Positions 30,896-32,861 of a stretch of DNA of 64,000 bases are shown in pieces. The notes under the pieces were generated by a model that saw only the letters and a list, made by a program, of their open reading frames with translations, ran no database searches and was not told the DNA's origin. Within the stretch, counting starts at the first letter, position 1; every line of letters starts with the position of its first letter. This DNA is from Vulcanimicrobiales bacterium (GTDB lineage: Bacteria; Vulcanimicrobiota; Vulcanimicrobiia; Vulcanimicrobiales; Vulcanimicrobiaceae): contig JBBRLI010000006.1 in the NCBI GenBank assembly GCA_038231455.1, positions 32,001-96,000 of the forward strand. The letters run 5' to 3'. The position numbers were made by a program, and so were the translations under genes.

Positions 30896-31834
30896 ATGAT
30901 CGCCGCCGATTCGCTCGACCAAGTTCTGAGGGCAGCCCAGGTCCATGCCGCGCAGCCGCTCTGGACGGTCATGGACGCAATGGTGCCGCCGGCGCCGAAT
31001 CCGCGCGCGGTTCCCCACCTCTGGCGGTATGCCGACCTCCGTCCGCTGTTGCTTCGCGCGGGCGAACTCGTCGGCACCGAAGAGGCCGAGCGTCGCGTGT
31101 TCATGCTGGTGAATCCGGCCATGCGGGCGCCGTTCACGACCGATACGCTGTATGCGGGCCTACAGTACATTCGCCCGGGCGAAGTCGCACGGGCACATCG
31201 GCACATGGCGTTCGCACTGCGCTTTATTGTCGAAGGCGACGGTGCGTACACGGCGGTCGGCGGCGAGAAGGTCACGATGGAACGCGGCGACGTGATCCTC
31301 ACGCCAACGTGGGATTTTCACGATCACGGGCATGAGGGCAAGCAAGGAATGATCTGGCTCGACGGCCTGGATCTGCCGCTCTTTCAGTGGCTACCGACCA
31401 ATTTTGCGCAGCCGTATCACGAGCCGCGTTATCCCTCGGAACCGTCGACTGCCGATTCTCACTTGAAATATCCGTGGGCCGAGATGCAAGCCAAACTCGA
31501 CGCGCACGTGGGGCCGTTTGCCGAAGAACGCTACGCACACCGGCACACGGGCGGTCATATCTCGAAGACGCTCGGAGCTGCAGCCGAGCGCCTTGCGGCC
31601 GGCGCCACCTCGCCGAAGCGACGCGAAACCGCAAGCTCGGTCTACCACGTGCATAGCGGCACGGGCATGACGACCATCGGCGAGACGACGCTGCACTGGG
31701 AATCCGGTGATACGATCGCGATTCCGGCGTGGATGCCATTCGAACATCACGCAACGGATGCGACGTATTTCTTCCGGTTCGATGACAAACCGATGCTCGA
31801 TGCTCTCGGCTACTACAAGCGCGAGGACGGCTAA
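30896..31834 (+). CDS. Gentisate 1,2-dioxygenase-like bicupin
   Basis: AERRVFMLVNP, TLYAGLQ, AHRH...ALRFI, HDHG, WLDGLDLP. Confidence 0.87.
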   Translation: MIAADSLDQVLRAAQVHAAQPLWTVMDAMVPPAPNPRAVPHLWRYADLRPLLLRAGELVGTEEAERRVFMLVNPAMRAPFTTDTLYAGLQYIRPGEVARAHRHMAFALRFIVEGDGAYTAVGGEKVTMERGDVILTPTWDFHDHGHEGKQGMIWLDGLDLPLFQWLPTNFAQPYHEPRYPSEPSTADSHLKYPWAEMQAKLDAHVGPFAEERYAHRHTGGHISKTLGAAAERLAAGATSPKRRETASSVYHVHSGTGMTTIGETTLHWESGDTIAIPAWMPFEHHATDATYFFRFDDKPMLDALGYYKREDG

Positions 31835-32322
31835 TGGATTCGGTCATCGATGCGAGTCTGCCGTTTCCCGAAGCGGATCTGCGCGATCATCCGCCGCGCA
31901 ACGCGCGCGTGATGCTCGGCGGCTTGTATTTTCTTGCGCGCACGATCGATAAAGCCAAAGCGAAAATCAACGGCACGCTCGGCGAGTACAAGATCGGCCC
32001 CGGTATTTCGATGTATCTCTTCGAGTGGCTCGGCATCGGCGATGCGGATTTCGTCGATGCGGTACGCACGCTCAAAACCGACGAGGCGATCGTCGCCTGG
32101 ATTCACGAACGTACCGATGCAACGCAGTACGACGATATCAATATGCGCCTTTCGACGCGTGCGATTCGCGATGACGAACACTTTGAGGCGGTGCTTCCGG
32201 CCTACCCGTTACTGAACGAACATCCGCACTTGCGAAATTGGTTTGAGATTTTCGATCTCGACGATGAGTGGATTTTCGATCAGAAAAACCGCAAACACGT
32301 GCCGAGCGGTCAGTACGACTAG
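31834..32322 (+). CDS. DUF5069-like protein
   Basis: DLRDHPPR...LGGLYFLARTIDKAKA...GTLGEY; TAATG overlap. Confidence 0.75.
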   Translation: MDSVIDASLPFPEADLRDHPPRNARVMLGGLYFLARTIDKAKAKINGTLGEYKIGPGISMYLFEWLGIGDADFVDAVRTLKTDEAIVAWIHERTDATQYDDINMRLSTRAIRDDEHFEAVLPAYPLLNEHPHLRNWFEIFDLDDEWIFDQKNRKHVPSGQYD

Positions 32323-32861
32323 TGGAGCTACCGCAAGTCGGCGAGCACGCGCCGGACGTCGTCCTCGCATTGCCGATTCCGCGGCCCGCGCTCGTCTTGT
32401 GGCTGCGGCACGTCGGTTGACGATTCTTCGCTGAGCCGCTCGCGCAGTTGCGCGAACTCGACCGGGACTTCGCCGCACTCGGCGTGAGCGTACGCGCGAT
32501 CACGATCGGCTCGCAAGACAAAGCCGAGAGATTTTGCGCGATTCACAACCCCGAGGCGATCTGCATCGGCGATGTCGACATGCACACGTATAAGGCGATG
32601 GGGTTCGATGATTTCGATCTGACGAAACTCAAGACGACGCCCGCGCTCACCGCACGTCGCGCAGAAAATGAAGCCGCCGGATTCGTTCAAAACTGGGACG
32701 AAACGAAAATCGAGGATGCCGCGCAAAATCCGGGAGCCGCACTCATCGATCGCGACGGCGTGCTGCGCTGGATCTACCGCGGCGTCCATCCCGGCGATTT
32801 GCCCGCGCTAAAGGCGATGTTCGACGTGACGAAACGGTCGATCGAACCGGGTCGGACGTAG
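32322..32861 (+). CDS. AhpC/TSA (peroxiredoxin-like, thioredoxin-fold) selenoprotein, Sec at TGA 32418-32420
   Basis: GTG 32322 overlaps the upstream TAG and is in frame with ORF 32448-32861. Reads PQVGEHAPD...VLWLRHVG-U-RFFAEPLAQLRE; C-terminal QNPGAALIDRDGVLRWIY. Confidence 0.78.
32440..32455 (+). promoter_or_regulatory. Putative SECIS hairpin
   Basis: TCGCGC-AGTT-GCGCGA; loop starts 25 nt after the TGA, G at loop position 2. Confidence 0.55.

Follow-up and report, generated by a model that had tools for sequence, protein, structure and literature searches.

In this study, we analysed a window of 64,000 nucleotides from a Vulcanimicrobiales bacterium (GenBank assembly GCA_038231455.1, contig JBBRLI010000006.1, positions 32,001 to 96,000 of the forward strand). 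We propose that the stretch 32322..32861 of this window is one gene, which encodes a selenoprotein of 179 residues, and we put the probability of this reading at about 0.85. All features described below are on the plus strand and are numbered from the first letter of the window. The gene consists of 179 codons and a TAG stop (32859-32861), which closes the read-through frame when TGA is translated as selenocysteine (Sec, U). The predicted product is an AhpC-TSA_2 / SelL-related thioredoxin-fold protein. Translation would start at GTG 32322..32324, 32 codons ahead of the Sec codon, and this GTG has one base in common with the TAG stop (32320-32322) of an upstream DUF5069 gene. An alternative GTG at 32268 (codon -50 relative to TGA) has no counterpart in relatives. 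The putative Sec33 codon is the TGA at 32418..32420, and the frame around it reads ...WLRHVG-TGA-RFFAEPLAQLRE in the window sequence; the longer readout is P-A-L-V-L-W-L-R-H-V-G-TGA-R-F-F-A-E-P-L-A-Q-L-R-E. Under translation table 11, this frame is split into a 50-codon open reading frame (ORF) up to the TGA and a 137-aa ORF from TTG 32448. An earlier note on the window had pointed out the overlap of GTG 32322 with the DUF5069 stop, an in-frame TGA, the frame running to 32861 and a hairpin at 32440-32455, and all of these are present in the sequence.

The TGA codon is conserved in relatives. We searched 401 genomes of the same phylum in six frames and obtained matches in 48 of them, the genome of the window being counted. 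TGA was found in 47 of the 51 match rows. At the aligned codon, TGA was present in 30/30 loci and then in 17/20 further loci, that is, in 47/50. It should be mentioned that locus L029, from a genome flagged as unpublished (G360), is counted in these tallies; without it they are 29/29 and 46/49. Three loci do not have TGA: the codon is TGC in L051 and also in L067, where it belongs to a CxxC motif, and the sequence of L070 is truncated by the contig start just past the site. L051, a Cys form, comes from the same bacterial family as the window. Around the codon, the motif W-[L/P/V]-R-H-x-G-U-[T/R]-F-F is found in 42 TGA loci and R-H-x-G-U-x-F-C in five.

Both sides of the codon are conserved as protein. 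Across 45 full-length aligned sequences, P22, R29, H30, G32, residue 33, F35, D84 and G120 are invariant. Upstream of TGA, residues are kept in 41 loci although their codons vary synonymously: Leu-9 is encoded by five codons, Arg-4 by five and Pro-11 by four. In most loci, ATG or GTG is located 23-35 codons before TGA, and the GTG of the window is at -32; three loci have a start only at -40 to -42 and one locus has none. Because the residues are kept, the codons vary and a start lies upstream, the 32 N-terminal codons appear to be translated in frame with the rest. Furthermore, in dozens of genomes protein-level selection acts on this frame both before and after the TGA, and where relatives have a sense codon, it encodes Cys. 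As far as a comparison of sequences can show it, the ribosome must therefore read UGA 32418 as a sense codon.

A stem-loop follows the UGA codon at 32439..32456. It has a 7-bp register, of which 6 bp are formed in the window (32440-32445 with 32450-32455), and the loop AGUU is at 32446-32449. The window hairpin, TCGCGC-AGTT-GCGCGA at 32440-32455, thus has a stem of 6 bp and a 4-nt loop; the seventh pair, which is present in relatives, is a C/A mismatch (32439/32456). Relatives have the stem CUCGCGC-AGUU-GCGCGAG, which spans positions 22-39 with numbering from the U of UGA. In the bSECISearch model of a bacterial Sec insertion sequence (SECIS), a stem-loop carrying G/U in its apical loop follows the UGA at a short distance, and the stem at +22 to +39 with its AGUU loop agrees with this geometry. 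When a loose rule was applied to the 64-kb window (a TGA with at least 25 open codons before and at least 40 after it, a stem of at least 6 bp and a G early in the loop), 36 TGA-plus-hairpin sites were obtained. The combination of TGA and hairpin is therefore not beyond chance on the window alone, but it is far beyond chance across genomes.

Codons +7 to +12 (L-A-Q-L-R-E), which form the stem-loop, are nearly frozen: CTC in 40/41 loci, GCG in 38/39, CAG in 41/41, TTG in 41/41, CGC in 30 and CGT in 10 of 40 for Arg, and GAG in 40/41. The change of Arg from CGC to CGT is tolerated in the stem because a G-U pair is kept. The TTG of Leu43 (32448..32450, codon +10) consists of the two 3'-most bases of the loop and the base that opens the 3' arm, and it would be the false start of the 137-aa ORF. 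Among 43 sequences, 98.7% of 301 stem cells are paired, a value that none of 500 shuffles reached, and slid registers pair at 4-70%. In this set, three of the seven stem pairs have changes on both sides, which answers the call of the earlier note for a covariation check. For example, L053 has CUCGUGC...GCACGAG, a compensatory pair gained at the price of Ala to Val and Arg to His. The UxxC relatives L065 (CGGUCCG-GUU-CGGAUCG) and L066 (CGGCCCG-GUU-CGGGUCG) have another stem with a GUU loop at the same distance from UGA, and they are one compensatory pair apart (T-A to C-G). L051, the sole Cys form whose DNA was compared, has no hairpin at the corresponding place. We take the stem-loop to be a SECIS, and we infer from the known bacterial pathway that SelB would bind it. 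If so, the gene shows clearly how a SECIS can restrict the sequence of a protein, L-A-Q-L-R-E being held by the RNA stem.

The genome of the window, which is 93.7% complete, possesses the machinery for Sec. The selA gene (520 bits) and the selB gene (275 bits; 305 with a C-terminal piece) are adjacent on contig C28. The selD gene (385 bits; L010, G000:C7, locus position 1531) is itself a selenoprotein gene with an in-frame TGA, located in G-A-G-U-A-S-K. This TGA is followed by two hairpins, the second of which, GGCGCAG-GTT-CTGCGCC, has a GUU loop comparable to the AGUU of the gene at 32322. A tRNA-Sec was found with 71.6 bits, and ARAGORN reports it as tRNA-SeC with anticodon TCA. The matches of selA, selB, selD and tRNA-Sec are all above their cut-offs. 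In the phylum, selA is present in 341/401 genomes, a tally that takes in 13 unpublished genomes, none of them carrying the selenoprotein gene. According to a reading of two tables, every gene-bearing genome except G360 (87% complete) has selA. This co-occurrence adds little, because the base rate is 85% and related genomes are not independent. The earlier note had proposed a 179-aa selenoprotein and had named three findings that would speak against it: relatives with a sense codon other than Cys, an N-terminal part of 32 codons that is not conserved, and a genome without Sec genes. We examined these three points and none of them holds. L051 and L067 have Cys, as do 137/139 database representatives (the other two have Ser and Trp); the N-terminal part is conserved as protein, with P22, R29, H30 and G32 invariant; and the Sec genes are present. 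With TGA kept at its place, coding flanks on both sides and a conserved stem-loop, the proposal is supported.

According to its model, the protein has a peroxiredoxin-type thioredoxin fold and belongs to the AhpC-TSA_2 / PRX-like-2 / SelL-related superfamily, as the earlier note had supposed in calling it a thioredoxin-fold, AhpC/TSA-like protein. Pfam PF13911 (AhpC-TSA_2) matches residues 43-154 with 32.8 bits, above the cut-off of 27 (E 9.7e-08), while Redoxin and AhpC-TSA of Pfam are below their cut-offs. NCBIfam NF040769 ("SelL-related redox protein") aligns with residues 20-168 and scores 77.6 bits, below the cut-off of 120. Five other scanned members of the clade, the Cys form L051 included, score 69-87 with NF040769, and the UxxC relatives L063 (154) and L064 (124) pass. 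We tried two ways of filing the protein and rejected both. It was not filed as a SelL-related protein, given the NF040769 score under the cut-off and a UxxF motif in place of C/U-x-x-C. It was not filed as a peroxiredoxin (Prx) either, given a PF00578 score of 18.5 bits against a cut-off of 26 and no PxxxTxxC motif (the site reads P-ALVLWLRHVG-U-RFF and has no T-x-x-C).

An AlphaFold2 model built from a 45-sequence alignment has a mean predicted local distance difference test score (pLDDT) of 94.8 over the whole length and a predicted template modelling score (pTM) of 0.90. The predicted elements are strand 23-30, helix 34-52, strand 56-62, helix 65-75, strand 80-83, helix 107-118, strands 138-142 and 147-153, and helix 163-174. 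In this model, Sec33 follows strand 23-30 and opens helix 34-52. The fold matches Bcp4 (3hjp; Z 16.4, root mean square deviation (rmsd) 2.6 over 147 residues) and human prostamide/PGF synthase (PGFS; 9usa, Z 15.0).

The residues at the active site were tabulated in relatives, as the earlier note had suggested. When 1.84 billion representatives were searched with a profile, 4546 matches had an E of up to 0.001, and the 139 site-covering stretches of the best 150 were tabulated. The column of residue 33 has Cys in 137 stretches, Ser in one and Trp in one. The column three residues on (+3), which is Phe36 in the window (TTC, 32427..32429), has Cys in 120, Phe in six, Tyr in five, Ala in three, Gly in two, and Ser and Thr in one each. 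In a sequence-profile search of the Protein Data Bank (PDB), G-C44-V-V-C47 of PGFS was aligned to G-U33-T-F-F36. Because the +3 column is Cys in 120/139 representatives, Phe36 replaces the second, resolving Cys of the CxxC motif; the earlier note was right on this point. In the clade of the window, the +3 residue is F in 39/40 rows and Y in 1/40, and in the xxC rows it is C in 5/5. It was also observed that the Sec/Cys column is occupied by Trp in one representative, P0179 (R-H-L-G-W-I-F-C). This Trp may be a TGA translated by a gene caller under another code, and P0179 may perhaps be another hidden UxxC selenoprotein.

Other residues distinguish the clade. Cys72 (TGC, 32535..32537) in the predicted helix 65-75, a candidate for a relocated resolving cysteine, is present in 38/40 clade rows (it is missing from L043 and L045), and Cys81 (TGC, 32562..32564) in the predicted strand 80-83 is present in 40/40; both are found in 0/5 xxC rows. 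Gln123-Asn124-Trp125 (32688..32696) belongs to a clade-specific loop motif, GF-x-Q-N/D-W, which comes after the invariant Gly120. Gln123 and Trp125 are each present in 40/40 clade rows, and the column of Trp125 is a gap in 4/5 xxC rows. Five Cys-form members of the F/Y clade (described below) have neither Cys72 nor Cys81 and carry Cys at column 121, beside Gly120. Because Cys72 and Cys81 are conserved in the clade, the description of the protein by the earlier note as having a "lone Sec" needs to be qualified: there is indeed no thiol at +3 and only one TGA, but two further cysteines are conserved. The need for an external reductant, which the note derived from the lone Sec, is likewise no more than a possibility.

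We constructed a maximum-likelihood tree of 184 rows, which was rooted at the midpoint only. All forms with F or Y at +3 are in one clade of 51 rows (Shimodaira-Hasegawa-like approximate likelihood ratio test (SH-aLRT) support 99), which comprises 39 UxxF, 6 CxxY, 5 CxxF and 1 SxxF. This F/Y clade stands apart from 131 rows, which are mostly CxxC and UxxC, and its nearest neighbours are two CxxC rows. Within it, the Sec forms make up a 40-row clade (support 97), whose sister is L051 (CxxY) plus P0077 (SxxF). P0075 (CxxF) is nested within the Sec clade, and UxxC rows are found at three separate places among CxxC forms. One genome, G146, has two TGA-containing paralogues, L026 (contig C90) and L069 (contig C43), with 70% and 58% identity to the window protein, which belong to separate subclades within the Sec clade. 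On this tree, the order of events would be CxxC, Cxx(F/Y), UxxF; in other words, the second Cys may have been lost before Sec arose. On the simplest reading, the F/Y clade saw a single replacement of Cys by Sec and one return to Cys, and the Sec of the CxxC branch had a separate origin. The forms CxxC, Cxx(F/Y) and UxxF, with one apparent reversion to CxxF, would then be a natural series for studying what Sec gives once the resolving cysteine is gone.

The split of the frame by TGA could also be explained without Sec. One explanation is that the real gene is the 137-aa ORF from TTG 32448, that the 32 codons and the TGA are an untranslated leader, and that the hairpin controls translation initiation from the TTG that its loop contains. 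All 73 database matches are indeed N-terminally short, covering no more than 76% of the query, and the TTG is invariant. However, such a leader would not keep its codons as amino acids in the face of synonymous variation. The upstream part also forms strand 23-30 and the active-site turn, which are modelled at pLDDT 94-98, and the alignments with NF040769 and PGFS cross the TGA. Moreover, the Cys forms L051 and P0075 are uninterrupted full-length ORFs, and the product of the short ORF would be without the invariant R-H-x-G-C/U motif of the family. We regard this explanation as very improbable. The same very low probability is given to a nonsense pseudogene, or to a UGA read by other means such as near-cognate Trp or Cys. 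Such a reading could draw on the further damage seen in 3/47 TGA loci and on the W at the Sec column of P0179. In contrast, a nonsense mutation is not expected to persist at one codon in 47 loci, with identities as low as 25-37%, while the flanks are under protein selection. Insertion of Sec also agrees with the conservation of the hairpin, with the complete Sec machinery and with the alternation of Sec and Cys.

Several observations weigh against the proposed selenoprotein gene or parts of its interpretation. Signs of damage are seen in three of the 47 TGA loci: L029 has a TAG within the 3' arm of the hairpin, L053 (G168) has a frameshift near the C-terminus and L068 (G120) has an internal TAG. 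The gene is patchy, being present in 41/296 sampled genomes of the family (9/9 and 5/6 in two genera, 3/80 in another), and it was not found in the sole genome of the same genus, which is 92% complete. As for the stem-loop, the 55 nt from TGA fold at -15.7 kcal/mol (z = 0.36), and 123/200 shuffles fold at least as well; no Rfam match was obtained in 32200-32700 at E up to 1. The window hairpin is the weakest of the set, with its 6 bp and with GAA at codon +12 (1/41 loci). Covariation comes from single sequences, one per pair, and is thin because the stem barely varies. At the Sec position, P0077 has Ser (G-S-R-F-F), although it is otherwise close to the Cys form L051, and thus not all relatives have kept a nucleophile there. 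With a tree rooted at the midpoint only, the order of events is based on parsimony. The neighbouring genes that were scanned give no hint of the substrate, and beyond a redox nucleophile at the CxxC position the mechanism given below is what we infer.

If the gene encodes a selenoprotein, the following mechanism can be considered. The stem-loop, which has a G+C-rich stem and starts 22 nt after UGA, would recruit SelB with Sec-tRNA(Sec), and Sec would be inserted as in the established bacterial pathway. By alignment, Sec33 is the counterpart of the attacking first Cys of CxxC (C44 of PGFS), and its selenolate may attack a peroxide, an endoperoxide or a disulfide substrate. The product would be a selenenic acid or a selenenylsulfide without resolution at +3. 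Because the +3 residue is Phe, the oxidised Sec would have to be resolved elsewhere, either by a distal Cys of the same protein (Cys72 in helix 65-75 is the best candidate, with Cys81) or by an external thiol or thioredoxin. Sec would have been installed in a lineage already working with a single nucleophile in the motif.

Two forms of resolution have to be weighed. The enzyme may work with one nucleophile, so that an external thiol (low-molecular-weight or thioredoxin) reduces Sec, as in glutathione peroxidase (GPx) or 1-Cys Prx, and Cys72 and Cys81 are structural; we hold this tentatively, at not far short of even odds. It is consistent with the absence of Cys at +3 in 40/40 rows, with P0075, a Cys form nested in the Sec clade that has neither Cys72 nor Cys81, with L043 and L045, which do not have Cys72, and with the location of Cys81 in the predicted inner strand 80-83. 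In contrast, purely structural cysteines would not be expected to be conserved exactly in the clade without the +3 Cys and to be absent from 5/5 xxC rows, and the Cys at column 121 in five Cys-form F/Y members without both of them looks like a resolving Cys placed elsewhere. We give an internal relay through Cys72 or Cys81 a similar or slightly lower chance than reduction by an external thiol. The pattern of Cys72/Cys81 and column 121 looks like a resolving cysteine that moved. Relocation of the resolving cysteine happens among peroxiredoxins, and PrxQ has forms with the resolving Cys in helix alpha-3. The weight that remains beyond internal relay and external reduction goes to non-redox or other chemistry.

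A more specific idea is that Sec was placed on a PRX-like-2 scaffold that was already without the second Cys, and that one Eremiobacterota lineage built a new catalytic surround, namely the Gln123-Asn/Asp124-Trp125 loop beside Gly120 and, on helix 65-75, Cys72 as a resolving cysteine in a new place. The outcome would be a convergent GPx-like Sec/Gln/Trp/Asn site or a PrxQ-like distal-Cys relay. We consider this idea unlikely. If it is true, a GPx-like site or a PrxQ-like relay would exist in a family whose known chemistry is otherwise limited to CxxC, UxxC or UxxU.

The gene has no conserved neighbour. The upstream DUF5069 gene (31834..32322; Pfam PF16798, 72.2 bits) is adjacent in 1/50 loci by tblastn, namely in the genome of the window only. 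For the flanking genes, the longest ORF within 500 nt was picked, a procedure that can miss short genes, and 76/90 picks were scanned. They belong to unrelated families apart from local patterns, such as aldehyde dehydrogenase in three loci, ABC-F in two, and SurE and ClpX in one genus. In this genus (L054-L062, 9/9 genomes), the selenoprotein gene either overlaps the end of surE or directly adjoins it, on the same strand, in the three loci scanned upstream, and it faces clpX downstream. This arrangement was not seen in other genera.

The window contains another, putatively recoded ORF at 386-1156. It has 256 codons, and its TGA at 896-898 lies in L-V-P-V-U-P-M-C (UxxC). A perfect 8-bp hairpin, ACCAGACG-GTC-CGTCTGGT, starts 13 nt after this TGA; as RNA it is ACCAGACG-GUC-CGUCUGGU, with G-U in the loop as in selD. 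NCBIfam TIGR04483 (D-proline reductase PrdB) matches residues 53-239, spanning the TGA, with 73.6 bits against a cut-off of 300; the ORF thus appears PrdB-like and not a PrdB equivalog. The earlier note had called the gene at 32322 the second recoded gene, and this ORF is probably the first. A screen based on G+C content at third codon positions (GC3), a length of at least 110 codons and Pfam gave no domain spanning the TGA in 47 read-through ORFs, and it missed the PrdB-like gene. A stricter GC3 screen missed even the gene at 32322, and a hairpin screen recovered the PrdB-like gene.

In databases, the selenoprotein gene is represented by its back part. The 73 proteins found with the read-through query are mostly 130-137 aa long. 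Those that bear a name are listed as "hypothetical protein", "AhpC/TSA family protein" or "peroxiredoxin" and come from Candidatus Eremiobacteraeota, Baltobacteraceae, Velthaea and Elarobacter. Gene callers that start at the invariant TTG of the hairpin would explain these truncated entries without the active site. Because all 73 proteins are the truncated back part, function prediction, fold prediction and selenoproteome counts for the phylum are wrong at this gene. Our literature search found no paper linking selenoproteins with Eremiobacterota and none naming NF040769 or "SelL-related". No SelL-related or UxxF entry was seen in the part consulted of the 119-family prokaryotic selenoprotein table of a 2026 review (PMC13188914). 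The word "Eremiobacterota" occurs 0 times in a part of the BSepDB supplement, and further entries may exist there. Selenoproteins are therefore already known from the superfamily, and a description of the UxxF clade was not found in these sources. The present analysis adds a well-supported selenoprotein subfamily with 42 UxxF loci in one family of Eremiobacterota.

Finally, we compared the protein with known systems. BCP/PrxQ, 1-Cys Prx and GPx may serve as working analogues: the overall fold is the same (Bcp4 as above; Prx6-type 1-Cys Prx, Z about 15.3-15.5), and they provide the concept of a single peroxidatic Cys or Sec whose resolution falls to a distal Cys or an external thiol. In contrast to Prx, the Sec of the window protein would be located three residues before the Prx Cys position, judging from the CxxC alignment, and the Prx motif is absent. 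The Pfam scan of the window protein gave no GPx family match. The best solved relative by sequence is human PGFS (PRXL2B; 9us9 and 9usa), with E 7.9e-11 for 9us9 over profile positions 13-170. PGFS reduces an endoperoxide with thioredoxin. Its structure 9usa superposes with an rmsd of 2.7 over 148 residues, and its C44 is aligned with Sec33. However, identity to PGFS is 18%, and PGFS has CVVC where the window protein has Sec first and Phe second.

Among predicted bacterial selenoproteins, cd02970 ("Peroxiredoxin-like family protein, UxxS") is listed as a PRX-like-2 selenoprotein without Cys at +3 (Table 1 of PMC13188914), and its first report, from a marine worm symbiont, is reference 60 there. 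By this table entry, it differs from the window protein in having UxxS instead of UxxF. In our tree, the one CxxS representative, P0218, is among CxxC forms and not in the F/Y clade. Two papers (PMC2397514, PMC2398784) describe SelL as a Prx-like selenoprotein that occurs in fish, invertebrates and marine bacteria. The window protein is homologous to NF040769 and eukaryotic SelL over residues 20-168 and has the same R-H-x-G-[C/U] site, and UxxC members of the same phylum (L063 and L064) score above the NF040769 cut-off. SelL has UxxU, with two Sec and a diselenide; in contrast, the window gene has one TGA and encodes Phe by TTC at +3. Thus, the window protein has UxxF where this group has UxxC, CxxC or UxxU, and its clade adds the GF-x-Q-N/D-W loop together with Cys72 and Cys81.

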